Source of the DNA: Candidatus Binatia bacterium
Lineage (GTDB): Bacteria; Desulfobacterota; Binatia; UBA9968
NCBI GenBank assembly: GCA_036504975.1
Contig: DASXUF010000173.1
Span: forward strand, 2,745 to 66,744
Length of the DNA stretch: 64,000 nucleotides
Reading direction: 5' to 3'
The notes beneath the pieces were generated by a model. That model had not been told where the DNA came from. It made no database searches and worked only from the letters and a program-made list of their open reading frames with translations. Position 1 is the first letter of the stretch, and each line of letters opens with the position of its first letter. Shown here in pieces: positions 12,349 to 59,779 of the stretch. The translations under genes were made by a program, and so were the position numbers.

Positions 12349-14280
12349 ATGGCGCGCAAACGATACCTCAAGAAAACTCCGCTCAAAGAAGCTCGCGAGC
12401 TTTTTTTGAGCCGCGTCGATCCGCGCGCGCTCGCGAGCGAAGAGTTGCGCATGGATCAGGCGCTCCATCGCGTCACTTCCGACCCGGTCTTCGCGCGTAT
12501 CTCCTCTCCCCACTATCACGCCGCCGCCATGGACGGGATCTGCGTGCGCGCAGAAGATACCTTCGGCGCGACCGAGTTCGCGGCAAAAAAGCTCAGGTGG
12601 ACGCCGCGCGAGGGGGGAGGGGAGGGAGCTTTCGCTTACGTCGACACCGGCAACTCGATTCCGCTCTGGGCCAACGCCGTCATCATGATCGAAAAAGTCC
12701 ATCAGCTCGACGACGGCAACGTGGAAATCTTCGACTCCGTCGGCCCCTGGAACCACGTGCGGCTCGTCGGCGAAGACGTCGTCGCGACCGAGCTGCTGCT
12801 GCCGCGCGCGCACCGGCTTCGCCCTTACGATCTCGGGGCGCTTTTGGCCGCGGGCCATACGACGGTAAACGTCAAAGAGAAGCCGAGAGTGGCGATTCTC
12901 CCGACCGGCGACGAGCTGATCGAGCCTGGCGACGAGCCGAAACCCGGAGCGGTGATCGATTTCAACTCCAGCGTGCTCGGGGCTTTCATCCAGGAATGGG
13001 GCGGCGAGCCGGTCAAGTCGCCGCGGGTCAAGGACGATCCGGCCGAGCTCGGCGCGGCATTGAGAGCAGCGCTGGAAAAAAATCACGTGGCCGCGATCAT
13101 CGCCGGCTCGTCCGCCGGCGAGCACGACTTTACGGCGGAGGTTATTGCCAACGCCGGCGAGCTGCTGGTCCATGGCATCGACGTGATGCCGGGAAAGCCG
13201 GCGGTCCTGGGAATTGTGGACGGGAAACCCGTCATCGGCATACCCGGCTATCCGGTCTCGGCGATCGTCATCGCGCGCGAGATACTCCGGCCCGTCATCG
13301 AAAAACTGTTGGGCGCCGGCCCGCAGTCGGCGCCTTCGGTTAAAGCCGTGGTGCCGAAGAAGATCCCTTCGCACCTCGGCCTGGAGGAATTCGTCCGGGT
13401 TAATTTGGGCCGCGTGGAATCCAAGCTTGTCGCAGTGCCGCTCGGCCGCGGCGCCGGCGTCATCACGACGATGGTCCACGCCGACGGTTTGATGCGCATT
13501 CCGAGTCTTGTCGAGGGCATCAACGGCGGCGACGAGGTGGAAGTCGAGCTGTTGCGGCCGATCGAAGAAGTCGAGAACACGATACTCTGCACTGGCAGCC
13601 ACGATCTCGCGATCGGCGTGCTCGAAGACCAGCTCAAGATGAGTTATCCGGAATTGAAAATCGCGGCGACCAACGTCGGCAGCGTCGGTGGTTTGCTGGC
13701 GCTTAAGCGCCGCGAGACGCACATCGCCGGCAGCCATCTCCTCGACCCGGACACTGGCGCGTATAACGTCCCCGACATCAAGCGCCTCATCCCAGGCACT
13801 CCGTTGGTTCTGGTTCATCTGGCGCGGCGCGAGCAGGGGCTGATCGTCAAGAAGGGCAACGCGAAAAAGGTTTCGGGCCTGCAAGATCTGTTGAGACCAG
13901 ATCTAACTTTCGTCAACCGCCAGCCAGGCTCAGGCACACGCGTTCTCCTCGACTACGAGCTCAAGCGACTCCAACTCGATTCGGCGCAAATCCGCGGCTA
14001 CGAGCGCGAGGAATTCACGCACATGTCGGTCGGCGTGGCGATCGCGAGCGGGCTCGCGGACGTCGGCTTGGGCGTGCGCTCCGCCGCCAACGCCCTCGGC
14101 CTCGACTTCATCCCTGTCGGCAACGAGCAGTACGACCTCGTCGTGCTGCGATCGTTTTTCGAGTCGGAAAAAGGGGAGAGGCTCGTTGACGTGATCCGCT
14201 CCGACGGCTTCAAAAAGGCTGTCACGGCGCTGGGCGGATACAATACGGGTAGAGCGGGAGAAGTTCTTTACCGTCAGTGA
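12349..14280 (+). CDS. MoeA-like molybdopterin molybdo-/tungsto-transferase fused to a C-terminal PBP-like (substrate-binding-like) domain
   Basis: 643 aa. The N-terminal ~400 aa are a MoeA paralog (GIPGYPVSAIV). The C-terminal ~240 aa are a periplasmic-binding-protein-like domain of the kind fused to MoeA in tungsten-utilising organisms. Confidence 0.8.
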   Translation: MARKRYLKKTPLKEARELFLSRVDPRALASEELRMDQALHRVTSDPVFARISSPHYHAAAMDGICVRAEDTFGATEFAAKKLRWTPREGGGEGAFAYVDTGNSIPLWANAVIMIEKVHQLDDGNVEIFDSVGPWNHVRLVGEDVVATELLLPRAHRLRPYDLGALLAAGHTTVNVKEKPRVAILPTGDELIEPGDEPKPGAVIDFNSSVLGAFIQEWGGEPVKSPRVKDDPAELGAALRAALEKNHVAAIIAGSSAGEHDFTAEVIANAGELLVHGIDVMPGKPAVLGIVDGKPVIGIPGYPVSAIVIAREILRPVIEKLLGAGPQSAPSVKAVVPKKIPSHLGLEEFVRVNLGRVESKLVAVPLGRGAGVITTMVHADGLMRIPSLVEGINGGDEVEVELLRPIEEVENTILCTGSHDLAIGVLEDQLKMSYPELKIAATNVGSVGGLLALKRRETHIAGSHLLDPDTGAYNVPDIKRLIPGTPLVLVHLARREQGLIVKKGNAKKVSGLQDLLRPDLTFVNRQPGSGTRVLLDYELKRLQLDSAQIRGYEREEFTHMSVGVAIASGLADVGLGVRSAANALGLDFIPVGNEQYDLVVLRSFFESEKGERLVDVIRSDGFKKAVTALGGYNTGRAGEVLYRQ

Positions 14281-14287
14281 GCTTGAA

Positions 14288-14318
14288 TGGTGCGCCCGCC
14301 GAGATTCGAACTCGGACT
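14288..14318. repeat. direct repeat copy 1: 3'-terminal 31 nt of tRNA-Arg(CCG) incl. CCA (att-like)
   Basis: tggtgcgcccgccgagattcgaactcggact. The 28-nt core is identical to 15238-15265 and differs at one base from the 3' end of the intact tRNA at 22249-22279. No 5' tRNA half upstream. Confidence 0.7.
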
Positions 14319-14338
14319 CGCCTTCATTGAGGTGCGAT

Positions 14339-14872
14339 TCAAGCAGATCCGAAAGTGTCGATGGTTTTCTCCACGGCTCGTCGGAAGGCCGGCGCGTCGA
14401 TAGCGGGATAGCGATACAATTGCGGTTCGATCGCTTCGAAAAGTTTTCGGAGTTCGACCGGCTCAATAAGGCCGCGTCGGAACATTTCCTGGACATCCGT
14501 AACATCGAGCGCATGGCCGCGCTCGATCTTCGCCAATGCCTGCGCGTAAAGATCATAGTGGTAGAAGCTCAACGGCCCCTCTTGGACGATGAAAAGGCTC
14601 CGCTCTTCCCAATGCGGCAGTTCGGGAATGAAATGGGCCGGACAGGCCAACTCCAGGTTGATTTCAAGCTCTTCCTTCAGCGCCGGTAGCGCTCGTAGAA
14701 CCGCGTCTTCCTCCGGAACAAGGAGTATGTCAACGTCGATCGTGCTGGAACGCCAGCCCAGTAACACGGCAGTTGCCCCGCCGGTGAAGTAAAGACGGGC
14801 ATTGCGTGCGGCTTTGGCGCTGATGGCTTTGATGAAACGTTGGATGTGATCGCGGCCGGCTAGGCGACGCAT
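14339..14872 (-). CDS. putative nucleotidyltransferase (DUF6036/MNT-like), toxin-antitoxin-like cassette component
   Basis: 177 aa; overlaps the upstream 107-aa ORF by 13 nt (translationally coupled pair). Lies between two tRNA-Arg 3' repeats. Confidence 0.45.
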   Translation of the reverse strand: MRRLAGRDHIQRFIKAISAKAARNARLYFTGGATAVLLGWRSSTIDVDILLVPEEDAVLRALPALKEELEINLELACPAHFIPELPHWEERSLFIVQEGPLSFYHYDLYAQALAKIERGHALDVTDVQEMFRRGLIEPVELRKLFEAIEPQLYRYPAIDAPAFRRAVEKTIDTFGSA

Positions 14873-15183
14873 TCGAGGGCTCGTTCGAAGCGCACCAACC
14901 GGCGCAGCAGCGCGTTGTAACGCGAGTGCGCCGAGTCGGGATTGGAGGAGGCAAGGAGCCGATACAGTTCGTGTTCAGGAATCTTTAAACCGGGTTCCGG
15001 CACCTTAAATCCAAGCCGGCGTAGTCGTGGAGCGCCGATAAGAACAAGGAGAGCTGCCTCTGATTCCCGCCCTGCGGCCAGATCTTCAAGCCCTTTGCGG
15101 ACCAACTCGCCGCCGGGGAAAGGACTGAAATCCTTGAGATCCATATACGCACTTTCGTACCACGCAGGACCGCGCCGTTTCAA
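14860..15183 (-). CDS. small partner protein of the NTase cassette (hypothetical, 107 aa)
   Basis: Co-oriented, overlapping the downstream NTase gene. No other family evidence. Confidence 0.35.
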   Translation of the reverse strand: MKRRGPAWYESAYMDLKDFSPFPGGELVRKGLEDLAAGRESEAALLVLIGAPRLRRLGFKVPEPGLKIPEHELYRLLASSNPDSAHSRYNALLRRLVRFERALECVA

Positions 15184-15237
15184 GGATCTTCAACCAAGCT
15201 CAACGCCGAGGATGTTCAGGAATTTTTGCTGCACTCA

Positions 15238-15267
15238 TGCGCCCGCCGAGATTCGAACTCGGACTTA
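15238..15267. repeat. direct repeat copy 2: 3'-terminal 30 nt of tRNA-Arg(CCG) (att-like)
   Basis: tgcgcccgccgagattcgaactcggactta; identical core to copy 1. Shares the ggactTA extension with the intact tRNA-Arg at 22249-22323. Confidence 0.7.
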
Positions 15268-15374
15268 AGATCACTAACTAAGAATCAGCTTACTTACCCG
15301 AGGCGCATTTCAAAACTTGACGAGTCAGTCGTCAAATGTCATGATTATCGTCGGAAAGGCGCCAAGCGTGGCAA

Positions 15375-16520
15375 ATGGACGTGCCGGTCATTCAACGCAT
15401 CGTCAACCTACCGGAATGGCTGAAGAAGAAGTCCCATTTTCTCTTTGGCCCGCGCCAGACTGGAAAGACTTTCCTGGTTCGCCAGGTCCTGCCCCAAGCG
15501 CGAGTCTACGACCTGCTCGACAGTTCGGTTTACCTGGCTCTCAGCCAGCGGCCCAGCCGGTTGGCGGAAGAACTGACGCCTCGGGATAAGCTGGTCGTCA
15601 TCGACGAGGTCCAGCGCCTGCCGGAACTTCTCAACGAAGTCCATCGCCTGATCGAGCAGCGCGGCATCTGTTTTCTTCTCACCGGCTCGAGCGCGCGCAA
15701 GTTGCGCCGCGGCGGCGTCAACCTTCTTGGCGGCCGCGCCCGCACGCGTCATCTGCACCCGTTGACCTACCGCGAGCTGGGAGAGCACTTTGAGTTATCG
15801 CAGGCCATCGAGCGCGGGCTGTTGCCGTCGATTTATTTCTCTGACGATGCGAAAGCAGACCTCGACGCGTACACCGGCACTTACTTGCAGCAGGAAATCG
15901 TTGCGGAGGGGTCCACGCGAAACGCGCCGGCCTTCAGCCGCTTCTTGCGCGTCGCCGCCCTGTGCAACGCGACGCTCGTCAACTTTACCAACGTGGCTAA
16001 CGACGCCCAGGTGCCGCGAACGACCGTCTACGAATATTTCGAAATTCTGAAGGATACACTGCTGCTGCATGAACTCCCGGCGTGGCGGTCGTCGAAGAAG
16101 CGCAAGCCGGTGGTCTCGTCCAAGTATTACTTCTTTGACGCGGGAGTCGCTTCGGCTCTGCAAGGGCGGCTGGTGAAACAGGGCGCACCTGAATTCGGCG
16201 GCGCCTTCGAGACTTGGCTGTTTCATGAACTCATCGCCTGGCGGGACTATGCGTCGGGCGAAGCGTTGAGCCACTGGCGCTCCACTTCCGGCTTCGAGGT
16301 GGACTTCATTCTCGGCGATCACACCGCCGTCGAGATCAAGGCTAAGGAGAACGTGTCCCCGCAAGATCTCAAATCGCTGCGGGCGCTAGCCGAAGAACAA
16401 AAGCTGAAGCGGTATCTTTGCGTGAGTTTGGAGCCGCGTCCGCGCGAGCTTGAGGGAATCGCAATCCTCCCCTACAAGCAGTTCCTCGATGCGCTGTGGA
16501 CCGGCGAATTCTCGTCCTAA
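15375..16520 (+). CDS. AAA family ATPase (DUF4143-type, archaeal-ATPase-like)
   Basis: 381 aa. Walker A GPRQTGKT, Walker B LVVIDEV, DUF4143-like C-terminal region. This family is frequent on genomic islands. Confidence 0.75.
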   Translation: MDVPVIQRIVNLPEWLKKKSHFLFGPRQTGKTFLVRQVLPQARVYDLLDSSVYLALSQRPSRLAEELTPRDKLVVIDEVQRLPELLNEVHRLIEQRGICFLLTGSSARKLRRGGVNLLGGRARTRHLHPLTYRELGEHFELSQAIERGLLPSIYFSDDAKADLDAYTGTYLQQEIVAEGSTRNAPAFSRFLRVAALCNATLVNFTNVANDAQVPRTTVYEYFEILKDTLLLHELPAWRSSKKRKPVVSSKYYFFDAGVASALQGRLVKQGAPEFGGAFETWLFHELIAWRDYASGEALSHWRSTSGFEVDFILGDHTAVEIKAKENVSPQDLKSLRALAEEQKLKRYLCVSLEPRPRELEGIAILPYKQFLDALWTGEFSS

Positions 16521-16659
16521 CTGCGCGTGCCGTATGCTGGAATCATCTATCTTTGAATGATACGTGATTGCACGCTGCGCTGTATTGTCGGAATCTTAGG
16601 AGAGAGAAAAATCCTCACCGCCATAGATCTGTAGGCGTTCATAAAAAAGGAGAAATATT

Positions 16660-17217
16660 ATGGCAGACAACGAGAACAAAGAACTATGGGAACAGGGACA
16701 GTCTTCGCTTTTCAAGGCGCGGCTCGAGCGTCGCAAAGCGGATACAGCCCGACGCAAGGCGGGCCGCAAGGCGCTCACGGCCGAAGAGGTCAAGATGGAG
16801 TGGGAGCCGACCAACGGCGTTTGGTTCGGGAGTCTCTGCACGCGAGAGCTGGGCTTCGACAATCGGATCATCGAAGTCGATTGCCACATCTACCCGCCGC
16901 ATTCGCATTCGGTCACGCACAAGCATAACGAAGCGATCATTATCATTCTAAGAGGGAGAGGCTACAGTATTCTGGACGGCGAGCGCATCGACTGGAAGCC
17001 AGGCGATACTCTCTACATCGGCCAGGGAGTCTGGCACCAGCACCACATCACCAGCGACGAGCCGGCTATGGCATTCGCCATCAAGCCGCTGCCGCTGCAA
17101 GAGTATCTGGGCGAGCTGAATATCATCTACAAGGGCGACAAGCCCAAGATCAACGAGACTTTTAAAGCCAAATCGTTCGTCGAAGAGTTCGCGAAGATTA
17201 ACAACGAGAAAAAGTAG
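16660..17217 (+). CDS. cupin domain protein
   Basis: 185 aa. HIYPPHSHSVTHKHNEAIIIILRGRGY...GQGVWHQHHITS matches the two-motif cupin signature. Confidence 0.6.
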   Translation: MADNENKELWEQGQSSLFKARLERRKADTARRKAGRKALTAEEVKMEWEPTNGVWFGSLCTRELGFDNRIIEVDCHIYPPHSHSVTHKHNEAIIIILRGRGYSILDGERIDWKPGDTLYIGQGVWHQHHITSDEPAMAFAIKPLPLQEYLGELNIIYKGDKPKINETFKAKSFVEEFAKINNEKK

Positions 17218-17460
17218 ACGACCTTCCGTCGGGAACAAGCTATACGATCTCGCCAGCGTCAAACAACGTGTGATCTACGGCGCGGCGGCTACATCTTTGT
17301 TTGGTGGAAAGGAGATCACCCGCCCAGGCATGTGCACGTTTACAGGGACGAAAGGCTTGTCGTGAAGTGGGATATCGATAACCATAAAGCCATGAAAGGA
17401 GATGCGTCGAAAAAGGTCGTTAAGCTCATCGAGGAACTCGAGTCGGAAGGGTTGCTATGA
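17218..17460 (+). pseudogene. DUF4160-like small ORF lacking a canonical start codon (possible pseudogene or unconventional start)
   Basis: Frame reads ...GGYIFVWWKGDHPPRHVHVYRDERLVVKWDIDNHKAM...ELESEGLL, matching the DUF4160 GDHxPPHxH core. It opens directly after the cupin stop with no ATG/GTG/TTG in frame. ATGA overlap with the next gene. Confidence 0.35.
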
Positions 17461-17924
17461 AGGTTAGGTCGGTAAGTTTCAATAACAAGAGGAAGGATTT
17501 CGTTGTCAAAGCATCCGGCAAGACGTATGCCTTTCCTTACGTCAAAGCCAGGCCGAGTCCGACTTCGGACGATCCAGTCGCCCAGGTCTATGTCGACAAA
17601 GAGCTTGGCGGCGAAGGGTTCACGTACAAGCTTCAATCGGGAAAGACGGGAACCGTACATGTAGAGCAGGTGCTGGAATACAATCGAGATCCGAACTATC
17701 TGAGAGATCTCATGCTGTATAAATTAACATTGGAGGCTCAAAGGCGCATCGCTGAAAGCCCGCTCTCCAAGCGCGAAATCGTTCGCAGGTTAGGCACTTC
17801 TGCGACTCAGCTCTATCGGCTGCTGGACCAAACCAATTATCAGAAGTCGGTGGACCAGCTTGTCTCTCTGCTTCAACTCCTGGAGTGCGACGTCGATCTG
17901 GTGGTGCGGAAGAAGTCGGCGTAG
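17457..17924 (+). CDS. DUF2442-like N-terminal domain / C-terminal HTH protein (partner of DUF4160 cassette)
   Basis: 155 aa. MKVRSVSFNNKRKDFVVKASGKTYAFPY resembles a DUF2442 beta N-terminus. SKREIVRRLGTSATQLYRLLD is an HTH. Start overlaps the upstream stop (ATGA). Confidence 0.4.
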   Translation: MKVRSVSFNNKRKDFVVKASGKTYAFPYVKARPSPTSDDPVAQVYVDKELGGEGFTYKLQSGKTGTVHVEQVLEYNRDPNYLRDLMLYKLTLEAQRRIAESPLSKREIVRRLGTSATQLYRLLDQTNYQKSVDQLVSLLQLLECDVDLVVRKKSA

Positions 17925-17951
17925 TTCTCTTCAGCGCTTCAATCTTATAAT

Positions 17952-19043
17952 TTACTTTCCCTGCTCTCTCGACTTCATTATGGATTTGGCGAGCTCGAAG
18001 ATCGGCGCCATGTCGGCGTACTCCGGCCGCGCGACGTCGAGGTATTTTCTTCCCTCGACGATTCGATTGTCCGGCGGAACGTCACCTTTGGGAATATCGA
18101 TTCGCCTGGAGTTCGGCGGGTTTTCCGGATAACCGTATTTCTGTAAAGCGATTTGTCCCTTGCGCGAGAGAAACCAGTTGATGAAAACCTTCGCCGCGTT
18201 CGGATGTGGCGCCTGATTCATGAGACTGAGAGAGCCGTTCCGTACTCCAAAAGCGCTGCCTTCTTTCCAACCGCTCGTGTCCAGAGTCTCTATGGGAAGA
18301 CCCTGAGCTCTAGCCATGGATGCGGCGCAACCGAGGCAAAGAGCAAACTTGCCCTGAGCGAGCCAGTCCGTCATCTGCCGCTGGTCCCGGCTGAATGTTA
18401 CGTCCATCCGACCGAAGAACCGCTTGATGAATTCAGGGCCCAAGTCGGGATGATGAAAGAAAAACTGCATCGGGATGCCGATGCCGGTGTTGGTAGGCTC
18501 AAACGAGACGATCTTTCCTTTCCACTTCGAATTCAAAAGATCCCAGTACGATTTGAATTCCTTCGGCTCGACCAGCGTTTCGTTGTAGGCGAGCCGCATC
18601 GCGCTGGGATTGACTTCGTACGCGAAGATGTATTTTCCCTCGGCGTCGATGTATCGGTGTTCTCCTCCGTACCAGTGAGACTGTTCCACAACTTCGGGCA
18701 ACACGAGACTCGGCTTGATGGGATCGAGCGCCTTGCCTTTATAAAGAACGTTGTAGCTGGTGTTGGCGCCACTACTGAAAACGTCCGGGATGAATTTTCC
18801 GCCCCGCCTTTCAGCGACAACCCGGCTTCCCAACTGCGAACCCGGCGCCGCCAGCGAGTTCACCTTTATTTCCGGAAACTCCTTCTCGAACCATTTTACC
18901 GCTGGCTCGTACTGGTAGATGTAAATCGTCACCTGCCCGTCTTTTTTCGCCGCTGCCAAAGTTTCGGTCCACGTCTCTGATGAGCCGGCATAGCCGGAAC
19001 CGGTAAAGGTAAGAAGAGATAGCAAAGCCCGATACAACTTCAT
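17952..19043 (-). CDS. extracellular solute-binding protein family 1 (Fe3+-type ABC SBP) with signal peptide
   Basis: Start refined to MKLYRALLSLLTFTGSGYA (cat 19041-19043). Motifs KWKGKIVSFEP and HPNAAKVFINWFLS. Confidence 0.75.
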   Translation of the reverse strand: MKLYRALLSLLTFTGSGYAGSSETWTETLAAAKKDGQVTIYIYQYEPAVKWFEKEFPEIKVNSLAAPGSQLGSRVVAERRGGKFIPDVFSSGANTSYNVLYKGKALDPIKPSLVLPEVVEQSHWYGGEHRYIDAEGKYIFAYEVNPSAMRLAYNETLVEPKEFKSYWDLLNSKWKGKIVSFEPTNTGIGIPMQFFFHHPDLGPEFIKRFFGRMDVTFSRDQRQMTDWLAQGKFALCLGCAASMARAQGLPIETLDTSGWKEGSAFGVRNGSLSLMNQAPHPNAAKVFINWFLSRKGQIALQKYGYPENPPNSRRIDIPKGDVPPDNRIVEGRKYLDVARPEYADMAPIFELAKSIMKSREQGK

Positions 19044-19248
19044 CCGCGATTTCCAATTGCGCATACTGTCACGCATTCGAAATCGGAGATAACCCACTTT
19101 TGTAAGAGCTGTCAAACAAAAAAGACGTATAGAGGAAGTCCGCAGGGGGATCTATTAAACGGACTTCGAGTCGTGTTATCTGTTGCCAGTGCTTCGCGCC
19201 GAAAAAGCGTCCCAGGGCGTCCCCTTCGCCGTAAAGGAGGGAGTCTTT

Positions 19249-20193
19249 ATGTTGTATGTGCTTTATGTCGGCCTCATCCTTTTTCCCTCGTTGTGTTTCT
19301 CCGCAGAAAAGGTTCGGCTTGCCTACCCGGCCCGCTCTTTGAGCGCGCTCCATATTCGGATCGCGCAAGAGAAAGGCTTATATCGCAAATACGACTTGGA
19401 GGTCGAAGCGATCCAGATGCGCCCGACTATCAGCGCCGCCGCGCTCATCAGCGGCGAGGTGCGTTATCTCGCCTCCGTGGGGTCCGCTATCCGTTCGGCG
19501 GGAATGGCCGCTCCCGTGAAGATCGTTTCCGTGGCGAACGTCGCCCCTTTCTTTAGCCTAGTAGCACGACCGGCTTTTGCGAAGATCGAAGCGCTTAAAG
19601 GCAAAGAGATCGGCCTTACCGGCAACCCGGGCGGCACCAACGACCGAGTCATGCGGTTCATTCTCAAGGAGGCGGGGCTCGATCCCCAAAAGGATGTTCA
19701 ACTTATCTACGCGGGCGATCCGCCGCTTCTTTATTCGTCCTTTCAGGGCGGACGTTTTGACGCGATGTTCGTAAGCCTTCCCTTTCCCGTTCTGGCGGAA
19801 CAACAAGGCTATCGGATTCTGGTCAATGCGGCGGAGCGGATCAGGGTTCCGCTATCGGGCCTGGCGGTCACCGAAAGCACGCTCAAGGCCGGCCGAGATC
19901 AGGTGAAAAGAATGATCAAGGCCGATGTCGAGGCGCGCCGGTTGATCAGAAGAGAAAAGGAGACGGCCGTCGAGGTCATGGTCGGTTGGCTAGGCCTGGA
20001 TCGCCCCGTCGCACGGCGTTCCTATGATCTCTACCTTCCGGCTGTGAGCGGAGATCCTACTGTGGAACGGGAAGGCGTGCGCCTCATTTTGGATATGGAA
20101 GTGGAGAGCGGAGTTCCGATCAAAATTAGGGACCCGGATCAGATCGTCGACGCCAAGATCGTCGAAGAGGTCAGGAGAGAACTCTCGCAGTGA
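19249..20193 (+). CDS. NMT1/THI5-like ABC substrate-binding protein with signal peptide
   Basis: Start refined to MLYVLYVGLILFPSLCFSAEK (ATG 19249), preceded by a perfect AAAGGAGGG Shine-Dalgarno at 19233-19241. Confidence 0.7.
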   Translation: MLYVLYVGLILFPSLCFSAEKVRLAYPARSLSALHIRIAQEKGLYRKYDLEVEAIQMRPTISAAALISGEVRYLASVGSAIRSAGMAAPVKIVSVANVAPFFSLVARPAFAKIEALKGKEIGLTGNPGGTNDRVMRFILKEAGLDPQKDVQLIYAGDPPLLYSSFQGGRFDAMFVSLPFPVLAEQQGYRILVNAAERIRVPLSGLAVTESTLKAGRDQVKRMIKADVEARRLIRREKETAVEVMVGWLGLDRPVARRSYDLYLPAVSGDPTVEREGVRLILDMEVESGVPIKIRDPDQIVDAKIVEEVRRELSQ

Positions 20194-20304
20194 ACAGGCG
20201 TGCATGATCGATGCTGACCCTCGGAGTACGCGCCTGACCGCTAAGAGTCGAAGGCGGCCTGCCTGCTCACAGGCGAGATTCGGAGCCATCGATTGCAACC
20301 AACC

Positions 20305-21213
20305 ATGAGCAAGCTCTGTACTCTTGGAGAAGCGATCTCCAGCATTCCAAACGGCGCGGCGGTGGCGATGGGCTGCGGCCTTGAGTCCCTGATTCCCTTT
20401 GCCGCCGGCTATGAGATCATGCGTCAGAAGAAACGCGACCTCACGCTGATCGCGCCGATCTCGGATATCCAGTTCGATCAGCTCATCGGCGCAGGCTCGG
20501 CGAGAAAAATCATCGCCGCCTGGGTGGGCAACGTCGCCGCCGGGCTGGGGCACAATTTTCGCCGGGCGATGGAAGAGGGCGTTCCGCGGCCGCTCGAAAT
20601 CGAAGAGCACTCCAACTTCACGATCGCTCTCGCTCTCAAGGCCGCCGGCATGGGCGTGCCCTACCTGCCGACGCGCACGGCGCTCGGGAGCGATTTCAGC
20701 CGCGCGCCGCATTTCAACGCGATCACCTGCCCGTTCACCGGCGACAAGCTGCTCGCCGTGCGCGCGGTCGCGCCGGACGTGGCGATTCTCCACGTCCAGC
20801 GCGCGGATGACGAAGGCAACGCTCACCTCTGGGGCAACCTCGGCGTGGTGCGCGAAGCGGCGTTAGCGGCGAAGCGCGTGATCCTGACTTGCGAAGAGAG
20901 AGTCGATCACGAGATGATTCTCAGCGATCCCAACCGGACTCTGATTCCGGGATTTCTCGTTTCCCATGTGGTCAAGGCGCCGTTCGGCTCGCACCCGTCG
21001 CCAACTCAGGGCTATGCCAGAAGGGACGACGGGTTTTATTTCGACTATCACCGGCAATCGCGCGCCCTTGAGGGTTTTCAAGAATGGCTCGGCAAGTGGG
21101 TTTTCGGAACGGGCGGACACGACGGCTATCTCGATCTTCTCGGCAAAGAGCGGCGCGAGCGGCTCACCCCCGGAAAAGAGGTTTTCTCGCCGGCGGTCAA
21201 TTTCAGCGTGTAG
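20305..21213 (+). CDS. CoA-transferase subunit A (glutaconate/3-oxoacid CoA-transferase family)
   Basis: Start at MSKLCTLGEAISSIPNGAAVAMG; CoA-transferase family I alpha-subunit N-terminus. Confidence 0.8.
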   Translation: MSKLCTLGEAISSIPNGAAVAMGCGLESLIPFAAGYEIMRQKKRDLTLIAPISDIQFDQLIGAGSARKIIAAWVGNVAAGLGHNFRRAMEEGVPRPLEIEEHSNFTIALALKAAGMGVPYLPTRTALGSDFSRAPHFNAITCPFTGDKLLAVRAVAPDVAILHVQRADDEGNAHLWGNLGVVREAALAAKRVILTCEERVDHEMILSDPNRTLIPGFLVSHVVKAPFGSHPSPTQGYARRDDGFYFDYHRQSRALEGFQEWLGKWVFGTGGHDGYLDLLGKERRERLTPGKEVFSPAVNFSV

Positions 21214-21383
21214 CACGGGTGGCTAACGCTCTCGGGAGCGAGCCTATTCGGGCAACGGCAATAGATCCTGCCATTAGGCGACCTTCGCGATCGGTGCCGT
21301 TGCCCGTCGCGACTCGCCCCGTCGATCGCCGCACGGCATGATTTTTTCTCGCACCATGAGAGTGCCGGGCTAGGTGACGGCAG

Positions 21384-22142
21384 ATGGACTATACGCTCAA
21401 AGAACTGATGGTGATCGCGGCGGCCCGGGAGATCCGCGATGGAGAGATCGTCTTCGTCGGGATGCGGCTGCCGCTTCTGGGCTTCGCCGTCGCCAAAGAG
21501 CTTCATGCGCCGCGCGCCGTCGGCCTCTTCGAGAACGGCGTCATCCGCGACTGGCCCGCGCTCGCGCCGATCTTCACGATGAGCGATCCGCCCAATGTAA
21601 GCCGCTCGCTTTCATGTTGCGGCCTGGTCGACGTGATGTCGCTCCTGCAAGCCGGTCGCGTCGATCTCGGCTTCATCGGCGGCGCCGAGATCGACCGCTT
21701 CGGCAACCTCAATACGCACTGGGTCGAGGAAAACGGCAGGCGCGTGCGGCTTCCGGGAAGCGGCGGCGCGGCGGACATCGCCAGTCTGGCCGGGCGCTGC
21801 ATCATTATTATGAACCACGAGCGGCGACGTTTTCCGTCGAAAGTGCACTTCATCACCTCGCCCGGCCACGGAGAAGGGAAAGGCTGGCGCGAGGGAAAAA
21901 ATCTCAAGGGAGGCGGCCCGGCGCGAGTGATAACGAGCCTGGGGATTTTTTCCTTTGACCCGGAGAGCCGCGAGATGGTTTTAAGCTCGTTCCATCTCGG
22001 GCTCTCCATCGAGAAAATCCGGCAGGAAACCGGCTGGGCTCTCAGGGTTGCCGATGAGGTTCGCGAGACCCAATCGCCATCCGCCGAAGAGCTTGTCGCA
22101 GTGAGAAAGTACGACCCAAATGGAGTTTGGACCGGGAATTAG
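21384..22142 (+). CDS. CoA-transferase subunit B
   Basis: 252 aa. MDYTLKELMVIAAAREIRDGEIVFVGMRLP...FIGGAEIDRFGNLN...GSGGAADIA is a beta-subunit signature containing the catalytic Glu region. Confidence 0.8.
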   Translation: MDYTLKELMVIAAAREIRDGEIVFVGMRLPLLGFAVAKELHAPRAVGLFENGVIRDWPALAPIFTMSDPPNVSRSLSCCGLVDVMSLLQAGRVDLGFIGGAEIDRFGNLNTHWVEENGRRVRLPGSGGAADIASLAGRCIIIMNHERRRFPSKVHFITSPGHGEGKGWREGKNLKGGGPARVITSLGIFSFDPESREMVLSSFHLGLSIEKIRQETGWALRVADEVRETQSPSAEELVAVRKYDPNGVWTGN

Positions 22143-22248
22143 GCGGGAGATCGCCGTTCAACGCGGTGGGTCGGAAGCGCGGCAGGGGGTCCAAGATCGC
22201 CATGAGCGTCATCCCGCGGGCCCTTTAAGGAAAGTCACAGGCGAGATG

Positions 22249-22323
22249 TGGTGCGCCCGCCGAGAGTCGAACTCGGACTTAAGGCTTCGGAGGCCTTCGT
22301 GATATCCGTTTCACTACGGGCGC
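22249..22323 (-). tRNA. tRNA-Arg (anticodon CCG)
   Basis: Reverse complement folds as a 75-nt cloverleaf. Acceptor GCGCCCG/CGGGCGC, D-stem GTGA/TCAC, anticodon stem AAGGC/GCCTT with loop CTCCGAA (CCG), T-arm CCGAG-TTCGACT-CTCGG. CCA encoded. Confidence 0.85.
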
Positions 22324-22466
22324 GCGAAGATTGTTCTATCAACCGACTTCCGCTCAGTCAATGTTGTCGCTCTGTTGTTCGCTCTCGGGAGGCGCGCTCT
22401 CAACTGCGGCCGATAGGGCGGTCATCCGGAGTGTGGTGTTTCAGAAATTCGCCGTCCATGTCAGAC

Positions 22467-22557
22467 CGTCATTCCGGCCGAGCGGGCCGATGCTCGCGAG
22501 AGCCGGAATCCAGGGAATTCAAAAAGGGTCTGGATTCCCGCTTTCGCGGGAATGACG
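22467..22557. repeat. MITE/REP-like element with 9-bp terminal inverted repeats (CGTCATTCC / GGAATGACG)
   Basis: Internal hairpin GGATTCCCGCTTTCGCGGGAATGAC. It generates the spurious ...DSRFRGND... ORF (22248-22580) characteristic of dispersed repeat elements. Lies next to tRNA-Arg. Confidence 0.45.
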
Positions 22558-22576
22558 CTGATGGACTACCGGAACA

Positions 22577-23368
22577 CTAACGACTCTGTTTTACTTCCTT
22601 GAGCGCTTCGAGCATCTCGGCGTGGATCAGGCCGTTGGACGCCAGCGTCTCTTCGCCCGAGATCGAAAACGGCTTGCCGGAAAAATCCGTGACGGTGCCG
22701 CCCGCTTCGCGGACGATCAGCGTCCCCGCCGCCGTGTCCCAGGGATGTAGCTTCAGCTCCCAAAAGCCGTCCAGCCGGCCGCAGGCCAGATAACAGAGAT
22801 CGAGAGCCGCCGCTCCCGCGCGTCGGATCCCCTGGCTGCGCTTGGCGAAGGCGCGAAAGAACTTGAGATAGAAATCGATATTCTCGCGATGATCGTAGGG
22901 GAAGCCGGTCGCCAGCAGAGCCTTATCAAGCTCTGGAATCTTTGAGGTGCTGATCGGCCTGTCGTTCAGCAGCGCGCCTTCCCCTTTGATCGCGCTGAAG
23001 CCTTCTTCGCGCAGCGGATCATAGACGACGCCGAGAACGACCTGTCCCTCGTGCTCCAGCGCGATCGAGACGGCGAACTGCGGATAGGAATGGGCGAAGT
23101 TGGTCGTGCCGTCGAGCGGATCGATGAGCCAGCGATAGTCGCTGCCGGGCGCCACGATCGCCGTCTCTTCCTCGGCGAGAATCGAGTGGTCGGGAAAGTT
23201 CTTGAGCAACAAATCGACGATCTTTTCCTCCGCCTGCCGGTCGGTCGCGGTCACGAGGTTGATGGTCGATTTGTAATGCACTTCTTTGGCCTGTTGCCAG
23301 TTTTCCCGGATCAAACCGCCCGCAAGTCTCGCTGCCCGCCACGCGACCGAGAGAAATTTTTTCATCAT
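22577..23368 (-). CDS. suhB: inositol monophosphatase family protein (SuhB-like)
   Basis: 263 aa. IMPase motifs AEEE, WLIDPLDGTTNF, WDTAAG. Confidence 0.85.
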   Translation of the reverse strand: MMKKFLSVAWRAARLAGGLIRENWQQAKEVHYKSTINLVTATDRQAEEKIVDLLLKNFPDHSILAEEETAIVAPGSDYRWLIDPLDGTTNFAHSYPQFAVSIALEHEGQVVLGVVYDPLREEGFSAIKGEGALLNDRPISTSKIPELDKALLATGFPYDHRENIDFYLKFFRAFAKRSQGIRRAGAAALDLCYLACGRLDGFWELKLHPWDTAAGTLIVREAGGTVTDFSGKPFSISGEETLASNGLIHAEMLEALKEVKQSR

Positions 23369-35589: not shown

Positions 35590-38500
35590 GTGGGTCTCTC
35601 CGACCGCATGGCCGAAGCCTTACAAGAATCTTATCAAGGCTTAGAGAGAAAAATTACCGAAAGAACGCGGGACCTTTCGGCCCTCTATGCGGCTCTGGCG
35701 CCTTTGGCGTCTGCGGATCCCACCCGCTTGCTTCAACAAATCGTGGAGCGGCTCAAAGAGGCAACGGGCGCCGACGCCGCGCTCATTCGTATTCTCGACA
35801 AAGAAACAAAATCTCTTCGTTCTCCGGCTCACGTCGGGTTTTCTTCCGCTTACTTGCAGTCGACGCAGGATCTCGACGAAGGCTCGGCCGTCCGCGCCGC
35901 CTTCACGTCGGGCGAGCCGATCATCGCGGCGGATATTTCAAAAGATTCGCGGCTGAAGGGTAAGAAGCAAATAGAGGCGGGATTTCGCTCGTGCGCTTTT
36001 CTGCCCCTGAAAGTATCCGGCGAGCTGCGCGGAGTCGTCCATCTTGCCAGTGGCAAGGCCGGGCACTTCAGCGCGGATAAGATGGACAACCTCATGGCGA
36101 TCGCCCGTCAAATGGGCGTGGCCATGGAGAATCGCGAGCTGCTCGAGGAAACCAAGCGGCGCGCGGAACAGCAGGAGGCATTGGTCAAGTCGCTGAGCTT
36201 GCTCATCGGCGCGTCGCAGAAGCTGGTTGCGCGGGTCGATATCGACACGCTGGCTCAAGATATTTTGACAACCGTCGTGACCTCTTTCGGCATACGTTTG
36301 GCTTGGATCGGCAGCGCCGAATCCGACGGCCGAGTACGCCCGCTTTATTGGGCGGGAGACGTAGCGGAGTATCTGAGGCACGTCGAAATCCGCTGGGACG
36401 ATTCCCCGCTTGGACAAGGACCCGCCGGACGCGCCATCCGGACCGGCCGGCCGGTTGTCATGGACGTTGCCACCGATCCTGGATTTGAGCCGTGGCGCAA
36501 GCCGGCTCTTGACCATGGCTATCGCGAGGTCGCCGCATTTCCTCTTATGCGCGGCGCCACGCCGTTCGGCCACCTGATTCTCTACAGCAGCCAAAACGGT
36601 TTTTTTACTTCCGAGCGAGTGGAATTGCTGCAAACCTACGCGAATATCGCCACCGGCGCCCTCGAGAGCGCCCGTCTCTTTGAAGAGACCAAGCGCCAGG
36701 CGCAGGAAAAAGCGGCTTTGAACACGATCGCCACGGCTGTGAGCCAGTCGCTCGACGTGCAACAGATCCTAAACATCGCCATCGAAAAAGTGCTGGAAGT
36801 TACCGGCCGCGAGCGGGGTTACATCCGACTTAAAGATCTGGTTACTGGCGAGGTCACGCTGGCGGCCCACAAGGGGATCTCCGAGGAGTACGCTAACGTT
36901 CTCATTCACCAAAGGACTCCGGGAGGCAAGACCGATCAGGTCTTTACAACCGGGAAGCCCGTGATCATCAACGATCCCACGGCGATACCGCTCAAAGGAG
37001 AGACGCGCCGCGAGGGGCAAAATGTCGTGGCTTGGATTCCTGTGAAGGCGCGCGGCGAAGTGATCGGGATTCTCAACGTCGCCTCGGCGCGGCTGGTCCC
37101 TTTCTCGACTCAGGAAGTGGAGCTGCTCCAATCGATCGGGAATGTTATTGGAGTAGCCCTGGAAAACGCCTGGCTCTATAAAGAGTCGCAGCAGCATCAC
37201 GATATCCAAAAGCTTCTGAAGGAGGTGAGCCAGGACGTTACGGTTCTCGGTCTCGACCGCTCGCTCACGAAGATCGCAGATAAGGTTCGGGAGATGTTTA
37301 AAGTCGACATCGCCGATTTCCGGATTATCGAGGCAGGGGCCGCGAAGTACATCGGCCGGTCGGGGCAATGGTCCGAGCTTCTCGTGGGATCCGGTAAGAT
37401 GAGAGGGCGGATGAAATGGATTTTAGAGCATCGAACTCCTCTCATCATTCCGGATATCAACGTAGAGACGAACCTTCCCAGCGGCGATTCTATCCGGCAT
37501 CTCGGCCTCAGGGGTTTTCTCGCGGTGCCTCTCTTGTCGAGGAGCGCGGAGGTCATCGGCGTTCTCAGAGCGCTGACTTATTTGCCCCGAGACTTTAGGC
37601 CGGAACAGGTCGATTTTCTCCAGCAGTTGGCCAACGGGGTGGCCATTGCGATCGAGAATGCGCGCCTCTTCGAAGAGACCGTGCAGCGGGCGCAAGAGCA
37701 GGCAGCTCTTAGCGCGATCGCGACGGCGACCAGCCAATCACTTCACATCGACGAAATGCTCCATTTAGCGTTGGACAAGGTGTTGGAGGTCACAGGGCGT
37801 GAAAAGGGTTACATCAGGCTGAAGGATCCACTCACCGGCGACGTCAAGTTAGCAGCCCACCGGGGCATCTCCGATAAATACGTCACGCTTCTGCAACGCC
37901 GGACTCCGGGCGGTAAAAGCGATCAGGTTTTTGAAACGGGAGAACCGGTCATCATCAACGCTCCCGAAAAAGCGCTTCTCAGGGAGGAAACCCGTGATGA
38001 AGGCAACAGCTCCATCGCCTGGATTCCACTGAAGGCGCATGGGAAAGTCGTGGGGATCCTCAACGTCTCTACGGCTCAATCGGGTTTTTTCACCTCGCGT
38101 GAGGTGGATCTCTTGCAGGCCATCGGAAACGTGATCGGAGTCGCGGTTGAAAACGGCTGGCTTTACCAGGAATCCCAGCGGCAGGAGGAGATTCAAAAAC
38201 TCCTGAAGGAATTGAGCCAGGACATCACCTCTCTCGACATCAAATCTTTTTTTCAAAAGGTCACGGACAAAGTCCGCGAATACTTCAAGGTCGATATCTC
38301 GGACATCCGGCTGATCGAGCAGGGCGGGATTCTGCCGCCGGTCGGCTTGTCGGGTGCAGATTCCAAGCCTCTGTACAAATTGGGCGGACTGAGGGGACGA
38401 GCCGGATGGATCGTCAAAAATCGGCGCGCCGCGGTTATTTCGGATACCTCGAAAGACACGACTATTCCGGCCGGCGATACGACGCGTGAGATCGGTATCC

Positions 38501-41064: not shown

Positions 41065-41108
41065 GGCGGTTGCGGCTTCGTCGTTTCGACCGCCGGCGCG
41101 CTAAATCT

Positions 41109-43796: not shown

Positions 43797-43820
43797 CAAA
43801 GCGTCGCGCTGGAAAAGATT

Positions 43821-46800
43821 GTGAAGTCCAAGAAAAAAACTGCTGCGCTCGCCGAAAGAATCGCCGAAAGGAATTCCGATCTTTCCGCTCTCGCCCGAGA
43901 ACAACAGGCGCTCAACATGATCGCCCAGGCCGTCAGTCAATCGCTGCACCGCGACGAGCTGCTGGAGATCGCGCTCGACAAGGTTCTGGAGGTCACCGGC
44001 CGCGAGCGGGGAACGATCAGGCTCAAAGATTCGGTCACCGGCGACGTCAAGCTGTCGGCCCACCGCGGCTTCTCCGAAGAGGAAATAGCGGAGCTGCGTC
44101 GCAACATGCCGCATCGAATCAGCGAGCAGATTTTTGCTTCCGGCCAGCCGCTCGTCGTCAACGATCGGGCGGAGCTCCGTAACACGCAGTCTCTGTTGCC
44201 CCAAAGCCGCTCGGTCGCCTGGATCCCGATCAAGGCGCGGCAAAAAGTCGTCGGCGTGCTCGGGGTTTCCGCGGGCCGGCCCATACCATTTAGGCAACGC
44301 GAGGTCGATCTTCTTCAGGCGGTTGGCAGCGTCATCGGCGTCGCGATCGAAAATGCCCGGCTCTTCGAAGAAACCGGACGCCGGGCGCGCGAGCTGGCCG
44401 CGCTGCATGCGGTGACGGCCGCGGTCAGCGGCTCTTTCGATCTCGATCAGATTCTCCTCAAGGGTCTCGACGCGGTCCTCGAAGTAACGGAAATGGAAGT
44501 GGGTTACATCCAGTTTCTCGATGGCCACCCGCCCAGGCTTCTCCTCAAGGCGCATCGCGGCATGTCCGAATTGTTTCTCACGAGGTTCCAGGGCCGAGTT
44601 CGTCCGGGCGGCAAGACCGAGCAGATCATCGCGACGCGACAACCGCTGGTGCTGGAAAATATTCCCGCCGATCACGTGGGAAAATTCTCGGGCGAAAGAG
44701 TCACCGCGGCGGCGTGGGTGCCGATCACGTCGAAGGACAAAGTCATCGGCGTTCTCACCATCAGCACCAAAACCAGACCGACCTTTCCCCTGGCCCACCT
44801 TCCGCTGTTGGCCTCGATCGGCAATACGCTCGGGGTCGCGCTGGAGAACGCCCGGCTTTTCGAAGAAACCAAACAGCGCGCTCACGAGCAAGCGGTGCTC
44901 TCCGCGGTTGCCATGGCGATGAGCGAGTCGCTTCAGCTCGACGAGCTTCTGCGGATCGCGTTGGACCGGGTGCTCGAGGTCACCGGGAGGGAGCAAGGAT
45001 ATATACGGCTAAAAGATCCCGTCACCGGCAACCTAACGCTCGCCGCCCACCGCGGCGTTTCGGAAAATTATCTCCAAACGCTGCTGCATGGGCGCACGCC
45101 GGGCGGCAAGAGCGACCGCGTTTTCAAATCGGGGGAGCCGCTGGTCATCAACGATCCCGAAGGCTTTCAGCTCAAGGAACAGACCCGCCGCGAAGGAAAC
45201 CGCTCCTTCGTATGGGTTCCGTTAAAGGTGGGAGGAAAAACGGTCGGCATCGTGAACGTCTCGACGAGCCGGCCGCTTCCGTTCCAGCCGCGAGAAGTGG
45301 AGCTTTTGAAGGCGATCGGCAACGTGATCGGCGTGGCGCTGGAGAACGCGCGTCTCTTCAACGAAACCGAGCGGAGTCTGGAGCGCATCCGGGCGCTGAG
45401 AGAAATCGACCAGGCCATCACCACGAGTCTGGATCTGCGCACGATCCTGGACGTGCTGATGGAAAAAATCGATCTCGTCCTCCCGTACGCCGCGGCGACG
45501 GTGCGATTGCATAACAAGGAAAGCGGCTTCTTGGAACCCGTCGCCTGCCGAAACCTGGACGAAGAAGAATGGAAGAAAGCGCAGTGGAAAGGCGGACGGG
45601 GCATCGCCAACGTCGTTTTCGAAAAGCGGGCGCCGCTGATTATCCGCAACGCCCAGGCGGACGCGCGCGTGCTCGACGCCGCGTTTTACCGCAAGCACAG
45701 CCTGACCTCATACGTGGGAGTTCCCTTGCGGGTCAAGGACGAGGTCCTGGGGGTGCTCGGTTTCTACACCAAAGAGGAGCACGAATTCACCGGCGAGGAG
45801 GTCGAGTTCCTGATGACGCTGGCGGGGCAGGCGGCCATAGCGATCCACAAGTCCCAGCTTTACGAGGAGGCGCGTACTCGGGAAAAGGAAATGCAAGAAA
45901 CCAACCGCATGCTCTCGGCGTTGCATGCGGTGGCCGCCGCGGCGAGCCAATCGCTGGACCTCGACCGGGTCGTGCGCGCGGCGATCGAGAAAATTACCGA
46001 AATATTAGGCTTCGACGCGACGCAAATCCACGTTTACAACGGGCGCTCGGACGAGCTGGTCATGCGCGCCTACTACGAGATGGACCCGAAACTTTTCGTT
46101 TCGGTCCGAGCATTTAAGGTCGGACAAGGCATCGTCGGCAAAGTGGCCGAATCGGGCCAGCCGTTGATCTTCGAGGACGTCCTTACCGATCCGTTGTATC
46201 AAAGTCTCAGCCGCACGAAAGCGTCGTACCAGTTGGGCTATCATTTCTTTGCCGTCTTTCCGATTCGCGGCAAGCTCAGAAGCTTGGGCACGCTCGCCTG
46301 CACCGGCATCGACTCCCGGCGTTTGAGCTCCGGCGAGGTCCAACTGCTCGAGGCTATGGCGGACCAGATTGCCGTGGCGATAGAAAACACCGGGCTCTAC
46401 GAGCAGTTGACGCAGAAAGTCGACGAGCTGCAATTCAAGACCGAAGAGCTCCAGCGCGCCAACAAAGTCAAGGACGAATTCTTGAGCGTGATGTCGCACG
46501 AGCTCCGAACGCCGCTGAACGTCGTCATGGGTTATACCGCGATGATCAAGGACCAGATGGTCGGCGCGGTGAATCCGGAGCAGAGTCAAATTCTGGAGAA
46601 GCTGATGAGCCGCGTGCGCTCTCAGCTCGACATGGTCAACAGCATATTGCAGGCGACCCAGATTCAGGCGGCTACCGTCGCTCTCGAGCGCGAAGAAGTC
46701 AAGTTGAAAGATCTTCTCGACGGTCTCAAATCGGACCACAGCGCCAATTTGACCAAGCCCCTGACTCTGATCTGGGACTATCCACGGGACTTGCCCGCGA

Positions 46801-47276: not shown

Positions 47277-47286
47277 TGGTGGACGA

Positions 47287-49530: not shown

Positions 49531-49545
49531 GGGAGGCCTCAGAGT

Positions 49546-59757: not shown

Positions 59758-59779
59758 GGGTCTGCAGGGAACAAACGAC

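Follow-up and report, generated by a model that had tools for sequence, protein, structure and literature searches.

What placed partial copies of the 3' end of a tRNA gene beside the intact gene, with unrelated genes between them and no integrase nearby? The question is raised by a 64,000-nt stretch of the genome of a Candidatus Binatia, a bacterium from soil or groundwater that is not in culture (assembly GCA_036504975.1, contig DASXUF010000173.1, positions 2,745 to 66,744 of the forward strand), which we call the window. Here an intact tRNA-Arg(CCG) gene is separated by about 8 kb from a moeA-PBP fusion gene, and two copies of the tRNA 3' end lie within that interval. A first-pass annotation of this DNA proposed serial site-specific integration, with two tandem islets. 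With moderate confidence, we interpret the interval as a series of tandemly accreted integrative elements which have decayed to compact cargo resembling cis-mobilizable elements (CIMEs), and which have been remodelled by deletion and homologous recombination. The best-supported conclusion is that the tRNA-Arg(CCG) 3' end acts in this Binatia lineage as a recurrent site of site-specific integration.

Partial tRNA copies and an empty site

The 3' end of the tRNA-Arg(CCG) gene points toward lower coordinates, and the plus-strand sequence from 22249 onwards, TGGTGCGCCCGCCGAGAGTCGAACTCGGACTTAAGG, recurs twice in the window (Table 1). Read in the sense of the tRNA, copy 1 is AGTCCGAG...GCGCACCA and is separated by 7 nt from the moeA-PBP stop codon. 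Copy 2 (CTTAAG...GGGCGCA) extends 5 nt further into the tRNA and forms the border between islet 2 (E2) and the inner interval, which had been described as islet 1. Both copies are direct repeats, as the first-pass annotation had stated and as sequence reading and a pattern search confirmed. Its statement that they are identical to each other and one base off the gene holds over their 28-nt overlap, where the sole difference from the gene is T versus G at 22266 (in the T-loop; A versus C in tRNA sense). The end of copy 2 had been placed 2 nt short, at 15267 instead of 15269. A 26-mer pattern allowing up to three mismatches matched exactly three sites in the window and none in 100 shuffles, so the repeats are real and non-random. 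The additional degenerate tRNA pseudogenes that had been considered as a possible refutation did not appear, as no further copy was found in the window at thresholds of at least 16/22 or at least 23/35 matches. At these thresholds, no tRNA fragment in the window delimits the CoA-transferase block or the helix-turn-helix (HTH) block described below. A match to the Lysine riboswitch at 14223-14399 in a permissive Rfam search (17.4 bits, with 30 needed; E = 0.65) was dismissed as chance.

Comparison with related genomes, proposed in the first-pass annotation as a check, revealed an empty site with conserved synteny on both sides. Relatives of the moeA-PBP protein are nearly all encoded in Candidatus Binatia metagenome-assembled genomes (MAGs). 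In one of these, L007 (MGSS01000127.1; about 75-82% nucleotide identity), the moeA-PBP stop codon is followed by 23 nt and then by the 3' end of tRNA-Arg(CCG). Beyond the tRNA lie genes for inositol monophosphatase, ispE, tRNA-Gln and prs, an order that the window repeats beyond its own tRNA. The spacer between the moeA stop codon and copy 1 in the window (gcttgaa) resembles the start of the L007 spacer (cgttgag). This arrangement indicates that copy 1 occupies the original position of the tRNA 3' end, and that about 8 kb have been inserted between it and the present gene. The empty site comes from one of 80 loci, the other 79 being uninformative, with moeA-PBP located away from this tRNA.

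The copies carry a mark of their own. In tRNA sense, the T-loop base is A in all three fragment copies (the third is described below), C in the resident gene of both the window and the related contig L084, G in L007, L138, L088 and L089, and T in more distant orthologues. Because A is found in all fragment copies and in none of about 30 orthologous tRNA genes, the copies look derived from the attachment site of an element (attP). With a crossover near the acceptor end, each copy left at the distal junction (attR) would take its T-arm part from the incoming attP; the position of the single mismatch in the outer copy of L084 would allow such a crossover within the last 9 nt. Since the fragments share the A, successive elements appear to have had the same attP core. 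The copies start 32-35, 31 and 22 nt from the CCA end of the tRNA, a nesting which serial integration predicts, and copy 2 ends with ...GCGCA, without CCA, precisely at the start of islet 2. These features support a reading of the repeats as att-type scars, left by insertions into the 3' end of the tRNA. The fragment-specific core TTCGAATCTCGGCGGGCGCA offers a handle for the search for the responsible integrase.

A third islet and a mosaic interior

Contigs from the same population were obtained by exact-protein look-up. Two of them, L081 and L083, are 100% and 99.99% identical to the window and break near the islets. Two others, L084 (JGI 3300036860) and L086, share about 99.4% identity with the window; in them, a 2.1-kb segment (E3) with a single gene for a 640-aa TPR protein and a guanine-cytosine (GC) content of 46.6% lies between copy 1 and moeA-PBP. 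The order in these contigs is ...GCGCACCA, E3, TCGAATCTCGGCcGGCGCACCA (a further 22-nt copy) and ttcaagc-moeA. In the window, one copy is joined to the same ttcaagc-moeA flank, and the outermost islet E3 is missing exactly at the repeat. The population therefore holds three repeat-bounded islets in place of the two originally described. E3 also adjoins moeA in L178 (92% nucleotide identity), with a perfect 23-nt copy; because it is present in this relative as well, E3 is old and its absence from the window is most likely a loss, most simply through recombination of one repeat with the other. Within ~60 nt at the end of moeA-PBP (window ~14226-14280), the window and L084 differ at about 14 positions. 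The tract of the window matches that of L178, while the tract of L084 partly matches that of L138, and the end of moeA-PBP at the islet junction is thus a short mosaic produced by homologous recombination. Another contig, L087, terminates 3 nt past copy 1, as expected if both haplotypes co-occur.

The inner interval proved to be composite. Orthologous loci in many Binatia were found by searching metagenome contigs with the inositol monophosphatase. In one of these, L138 (about 90% nucleotide identity), the order is inositol monophosphatase, tRNA-Arg, 82 nt, a solute-binding protein (SBP) gene, a cupin gene, ~38 nt and moeA-PBP. The SBP and cupin genes are 92% identical between the window and L138, and the flanking genes 88-92%; since their divergence equals that of the flanks, the common ancestor already had both genes. 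Three separate blocks of the window have no counterpart in L138 (Table 1). The former islet 1, described as one element of ~7 kb, is thus a mosaic with two genes resident in L138. In the simplest reconciliation with L007, SBP, cupin and DUF4143 would belong to the innermost old element, a single deletion would have removed everything between DUF4143 and E3, both included, from L138, and separate indels would be responsible for block (ii) and, less clearly, for block (i). Immediately after CCA, each of the genomes compared (L007, L138, L088, L089 and the window) continues with different DNA, which identifies the tRNA end as a hot spot of recombination.

The proposed history begins with an ancestor resembling L007, with the tRNA directly beside moeA-PBP. 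Three or more circular elements, with an attP mimicking the T-arm and acceptor end, would have integrated there successively, each pushing the older elements outward and leaving a partial tRNA copy (attR) at the distal side; the present tRNA end would be the attL-type junction of the innermost insertion. The TPR islet E3 would have arrived before the DUF6036 pair of E2, and E2 before E1, whose remnants would include DUF4143, cupin, SBP and possibly more. We infer that the insertions were made by a tyrosine-type integrase, and that the integrases and any transfer genes were later deleted, leaving att-flanked cargo, mostly toxin-antitoxin (TA)-like or defence-type, equivalent to CIMEs. During later remodelling, L138 would have lost the block from DUF4143 to E3, indels would have affected the TA-like pair and the SBP/CoA-transferase block, and the window lineage would have lost E3 through recombination between the 22-nt repeats, in the mosaic region. 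The idea of serial integration put forward in the first-pass annotation is thereby strengthened by the empty site, the E3 indel, the nested boundaries, the T-loop A and the lack of an integrase, while its two-islet anatomy is not retained. Three reasons for the missing integrase had been offered; its loss fits best, and there is no positive evidence for mobilization in trans or for a different mechanism of att duplication.

Gene content and comparable scars elsewhere

Table 1. Features of the interval between moeA-PBP and the inositol monophosphatase gene, in window coordinates.
Feature	Coordinates	Strand	Basis or remark
MoeA-PBP fusion gene, left flank	12349-14280	+	Pfam, alignment, single-nucleotide polymorphism profile
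Extra block (iii) relative to L138	14272-16645		DUF4143, copy 2, islet 2, copy 1 (blastn)
Copy 1	14288-14318	-	TGGTGCGCCCGCCGAGATTCGAACTCGGACT, 31 nt, complement of CCA included
Islet 2 (E2), 0.9 kb, GC 57%	14319-15237	-	DUF6036 nucleotidyltransferase and overlapping partner open reading frame (ORF)
DUF6036 nucleotidyltransferase	14339-14872	-	Pfam DUF6036, 3e-06
Overlapping 94/107-aa partner ORF	14860-15144/15183	-	ORF overlapping the DUF6036 gene
Copy 2	15238-15269	-	TGCGCCCGCCGAGATTCGAACTCGGACTTAAG, 32 nt, without TGG/CCA
AAA_14/DUF4143 ATPase	15375-16520	+	Pfam; PADLOC PDC-S01, 7e-58
Cupin gene	16660-17217	+	Also in L138, 92% nucleotide identity
DUF4160 ORF without recognizable start codon	17275-17460	+	Pfam DUF4160, 6e-08
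Extra block (ii) relative to L138	17281-17950		DUF4160 ORF and HTH protein, 670 nt, GC 51% (blastn)
155-aa HTH protein	17457-17924	+	Weak HTH_37 match only
Solute-binding protein SBP_bac_8/1, GC 54%	17952-19115	-	Also in L138, 92% nucleotide identity
Extra block (i) relative to L138	19079-22248		NMT1-type SBP and CoA-transferase A/B, 3.2 kb, GC 60% (blastn)
NMT1-type SBP	19183-20193	+	Pfam
CoA-transferase A	20293-21213	+	Pfam
CoA-transferase B	21384-22142	+	Pfam
Intact tRNA-Arg(CCG)	22249-22323	-	ARAGORN; Rfam RF00005, 65.5 bits
228-nt insertion between tRNA and inositol monophosphatase gene	22366-22593	.	Absent from L138, L088, L089 and L007

Pfam searches bore out the gene content that had been listed for the interval, with the exception of the DUF2442 assignment of the 155-aa protein, for which only the weak HTH_37 match was found. 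The DUF6036 gene and its partner have the layout of a TA pair, the DUF4160 ORF and the HTH protein form another apparently TA-like pair, and the DUF4143 ATPase is a candidate single-gene defence protein, so that the genes retained seem to be mostly TA-like or defence-type. Such genes tend to persist as mobile elements decay. In NCBIfam and PADLOC, neither the DUF6036 pair nor the HTH or TPR protein received a name; there were only weak TPR matches, the sole ones to the E3 protein, and one match to PD-T4-6 at 7.5e-4. In other genomes, the 94-aa and 177-aa proteins of the DUF6036 pair are kept as a unit, near VapBC-, DUF433- and DUF2442-type modules, and the TPR protein has homologues located among HicAB, HigBA-like and DUF4258 modules.

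The islets differ in composition. GC content is 46.6% in E3, 51% in the HTH block and 54% in the SBP and cupin genes, while E2 and DUF4143 (57-58%) and the CoA-transferase block (60%) are close to the flanks and the genome (about 58-60%). E3, the HTH block and the SBP/cupin segment may thus be foreign in composition, a point counted in favour of integration. The cassettes are very compact, with less than 110 nt between gene and repeat.

Homologues of the cargo are widespread. The pair of 94-aa and DUF6036 proteins has thousands of homologues that are 65-89% identical, mostly on contigs of ~1 kb. Homologues of the DUF4143/AAA_14 ATPase number more than 7,800 at E<=1e-60. The 120 best of these share 76-85% identity with it and are labelled Binatia, Betaproteobacteria, Polarisedimenticolia and Nitrospirae, and most are found on contigs of 1.3-3 kb, about the length of the gene, which fits a multi-copy or mobile gene. 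Searches of plasmids with the DUF6036 and DUF4143 proteins (tblastn) returned only distant matches, up to 46% and 38% identical, respectively, and were uninformative.

Similar scars occur at other loci. In the distant Binatia contig L094 (10827-12376), a 36-nt fragment of the orthologous tRNA-Arg(CCG), with 3 mismatches, lies 1.45 kb downstream of the tRNA gene, and between the two DAHP synthase I is the only gene. L090, a related contig, possesses the synthase gene but lacks the fragment. In L169, the 3' 19 nt of tRNA-Leu(GAG) (15047-15133, minus strand) are repeated at 14282-14300, 765 nt downstream, and the tRNA and its repeat enclose only HicA/HicB (a HicA/UPF0150 pair). Further out lie a homologue of the E3 TPR protein (62% identical), DUF6942 and a HicB-like gene. 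No recombinase is encoded in the islets of L094 or L169. At a few loci, the same cargo families lie beside duplicated 3' ends of protein genes. In L180, a DUF4143 gene is flanked by direct repeats of ~490 nt derived from the 3' end of a GAF-HD_5 gene, and in L183 a DUF4143 gene and one further ORF are bracketed by 43-nt inverted repeats that are 98% complementary. In L190 (5241-8791) and L191, pairs encoding p94/DUF6036 and DUF433/DUF5615 each follow an ABC_sub_bind SBP gene and are each followed by a ~170-nt fragment (167 nt) of an SBP 3' end, present in four copies that are 71-87% identical.

On the other side of the tRNA, the 228-nt block is a genuine insertion, since L138, L088, L089 and L007 lack it. 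It contains a palindromic core resembling miniature inverted-repeat transposable elements (MITEs) or repetitive extragenic palindromic (REP) sequences, GTCATTCCGGC...GCGGGAATGAC at 22467-22557, with partial relatives in the Binatia loci L025 (74% over 90 nt) and L005 (28 nt identical). A similar tandem motif, GTCATGCCGGC...GCCGGCATCCAGG, is found in L184 (7323-7402). Many metagenome contigs stop at this tRNA or just past it (e.g., L088, L092 and L096). Elsewhere in the window, at 58633-60928, lies a second pair of cupin and SBP_bac_1 genes that is paralogous to the SBP of the interval (its match to the L138 SBP is 84% over 56 nt), and the window as a whole is very rich in NMT1-type and SBP_bac genes. 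Five consecutive genes for large, GAF-rich sensor histidine kinases occupy 35590-51642, one of them encoding 1824 aa with nine GAF domains.

Competing explanations and known systems

In agreement with the first-pass annotation, which had noted no tyrosine or serine recombinase, Pfam and the gene tables revealed no recombinase domain in the ORFs of the islets or in the larger ORFs of the window. The DUF4143 ATPase was considered as the missing recombinase; there is no evidence for this role, and its homologues in L179, L180 and L183 lie away from tRNAs. The circular form of E2 is predicted to contain the junction ...GAAGGCG-AGTCCGAGTTCGAATCTCGGCGGGCGCA-TGAGTGCAGC. The search for excised circles that had been recommended was carried out for the E3 junction, CTCGGCCGGCGCACCAGTTAAAAACC, which as an exact 26-mer had no match in assembled metagenome contigs.

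Several observations weigh against decayed integrative elements as the source of the islets. The recommended search for integrases associated with a matching att core gave none, and an integrase-bearing element with this core was found nowhere searched. In 13 Binatia loci that are more distantly related, inspection by eye showed no integrase downstream of the orthologous tRNA-Arg, and the ORFs there are metabolic (DAHP synthase, UbiD-like, HAD and others; not all were run through Pfam). The A-variant core occurs in no other locus among 192 fetched loci, and its single match in IMG/VR, TCGAATCTCGGCSGGCGCA, lies within a phage structural ORF with no tRNA and is attributed to chance. The islets contain no integrase pseudogene or other debris, and the compactness of the cassettes is not obviously expected from random decay. 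The element-side flanks of the three islets share no motif beyond one common 9-mer. As the haplotypes with and without E3 differ at about 14 of the last 60 nt of moeA-PBP, the E3 indel is not a clean recent excision and gives no proof of active att sites. Block (i) lies directly at the tRNA 3' end, has a host-like GC content and has no repeat at its distal side, and the SBP and cupin genes of L138 are present without a clear scar, the 14 nt that follow the moeA stop codon, ACTGCCGGCCGGCA, giving at best a match to the outer copy at 14 of 23 positions.

The integrity of the repeats raises the question of whether the cassettes are still mobile. They might be miniature, att-flanked cassettes moved, in trans or in cis, by an integrase which is encoded elsewhere in the genome or arrives on an element with the same att specificity. 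As 'non-autonomous' integrative elements, they would correspond to what MITEs are for transposons, or to mobilized CIMEs. The 28-nt identity between the copies, the compact structure without decay debris, the presence or absence of E3 bounded exactly by the repeats in co-occurring strains (together with the contig breaks in L087, L081 and L083), the similar tiny islets at the tRNAs of L169 and L094, and the spread of the DUF6036 pair and DUF4143 across phyla at 65-85% identity, mostly on cassette-length contigs, all speak for such mobility. We nevertheless regard it as unlikely, as E3 occupies the same site in a 92% relative and has therefore long been immobile, the exact E3 attP junction is absent from the metagenome contig collection, and the homologous-recombination mosaic in moeA explains the polymorphism without site-specific activity. 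In addition, homologous cassettes elsewhere are mostly located away from tRNAs or repeats, and no candidate integrase was identified. That mosaic can also be read as a sign of integration without any integrase, in a Campbell-type process. A circle of repeat and cassette, formed in a donor by recombination between flanking repeats, would re-integrate at a similar sequence by a RecA-dependent single crossover, with the conserved 3' end of a tRNA or protein gene acting as portable homology that is duplicated upon integration. Such a process agrees with the lack of a recombinase and of common arm motifs, with the varying lengths of the repeats at tRNAs (19, 22, 31, 32 and 36 nt) and with the longer repeats of protein-gene 3' ends around the same cargo families (~490 nt in L180, 167 nt in L190/L191). 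The minimal efficient processing segment for RecA is usually quoted as about 23-27 bp in E. coli, and repeats of 19-32 nt are at or below it. The SBP fragments of L190 are 20-30% diverged from the adjacent genes, have varied starts and may be remnants of tandem paralogues. The DUF6036/DUF4143 loci L185 and L186 have no direct repeats, those of L184 and L179 have only short or chance-level ones, none bracketing the gene, and the targeting of the segment from T-arm to CCA is the classic footprint of tyrosine integrases; on balance, this process seems unlikely.

The repeats could, in principle, be tRNA pseudogene fragments or local duplications unrelated to insertion, within a gene order that is ancient and fixed. 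The SBP and cupin genes of L138 fit this idea, for they separate the tRNA from moeA with no clear repeat beside them and have diverged to the same degree as the flanks; the host-like composition of the CoA-transferase block fits it too. The idea does not explain why L007 has an empty site, why the E3 indel is bounded by repeats and why the repeat boundaries are sharp and nested, nor does it account for the T-loop base that only the fragments carry, for the low GC content of E3 or for the different DNA after CCA in every relative, and it appears largely refuted and highly improbable. Accretion and decay of integrative elements thus remains the preferred explanation. A broader proposal is that compact one- or two-gene TA or defence cassettes (the DUF6036 pair, DUF4143, TPR, HicAB and others) constitute a class of non-autonomous elements, circles of a short gene-3'-end copy and cargo which insert at the 3' ends of tRNA or protein genes without a recombinase of their own. 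We regard this proposal as speculative and unlikely; if it were true, a trans-acting integrase or homologous single crossover would build integron-like arrays separated by gene-end fragments. The recurrence, at several loci, of very compact, recombinase-free cassettes bounded by gene-end repeats is the sole aspect that merits a dedicated survey.

The locus documents an integration hot spot at tRNA-Arg(CCG) in the uncultivated phylum Binatia, where TA-like and candidate defence genes gather as att-flanked remnants. This is useful in the annotation of Binatia MAGs, whose contigs often break here and whose DNA downstream of the tRNA differs between relatives. Among known systems, integron arrays likewise string together compact cassettes of one or two genes each, many of them TA-like, which are separated by a short recurring site with a hairpin (here the T-arm). 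This likeness is a resemblance only: the interval has no IntI, attI or Pc, its genes lie in mixed orientations, and its recurring site is a tRNA fragment and not attC. Williams is reported to have distinguished, in 2002 (NAR), sublocation classes of tRNA-targeting islands and prophages, with att cores in the T-loop or at the 3' end. With classical tRNA islands, the interval shares an identity block from the T-arm to the acceptor 3' strand (with or without CCA), its direct orientation and the regeneration of the tRNA. The insertion lies at the tRNA 3' end with the tRNA intact (ARAGORN, Rfam and sequence), a direct repeat of the tRNA 3' segment marks the distal boundary, with a third copy in L084, and a single related genome, L007, provides the empty site. 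In contrast to such islands, no element-encoded tyrosine or serine recombinase was found, there is no integrase beside the tRNA, and phage and conjugation genes are lacking.

In the tycheposon islands of Prochlorococcus, tandem elements are separated by partial tRNAs and accompanied by degenerate remnants (bioRxiv 10.1101/2020.12.28.424599). The present locus is similar in that the island adjoins a tRNA, partial tRNA copies stand between elements, newer elements push older ones outward, degenerate remnants and extra partial tRNAs occur within the island, and an element can be present in one subpopulation and missing from another. What defines tycheposons is a tyrosine recombinase of their own together with replication or packaging modules, whereas no such domain is found in this interval, which belongs to Binatia and carries mainly TA-like or defence-type cargo. 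CIMEs offer the closest description used here. Their three-step history involves tandem accretion, at the 3' ends of tRNA or protein genes, of islands derived from integrative and conjugative elements (ICEs) or integrative and mobilizable elements (IMEs) (Pavlovic 2004 and Bellanger 2011, reviewed in PMC5704250). No parent ICE, IME, prophage or integrase of matching specificity was identified for the present locus, its units are far smaller (0.9-2.1 kb, one or two genes), its innermost 'element' is a mosaic including host-like metabolic genes, and its cis-mobilization is at most putative. In common with CIMEs, the att copies are kept, the units stand in tandem at a tRNA 3' end with chimeric att sites between them, and the newest adjoins the intact gene. 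CIMEs are defined as retaining attL and attR after the loss of integration and transfer genes (PMC5704250), and E2, and E3 in L084, agree with this in having att-type copies on both sides and encoding no recombinase or transfer gene. The locus therefore belongs to a kind already known, that of decayed, att-flanked island remnants at a tRNA hot spot, and by itself it implies no new mechanism.

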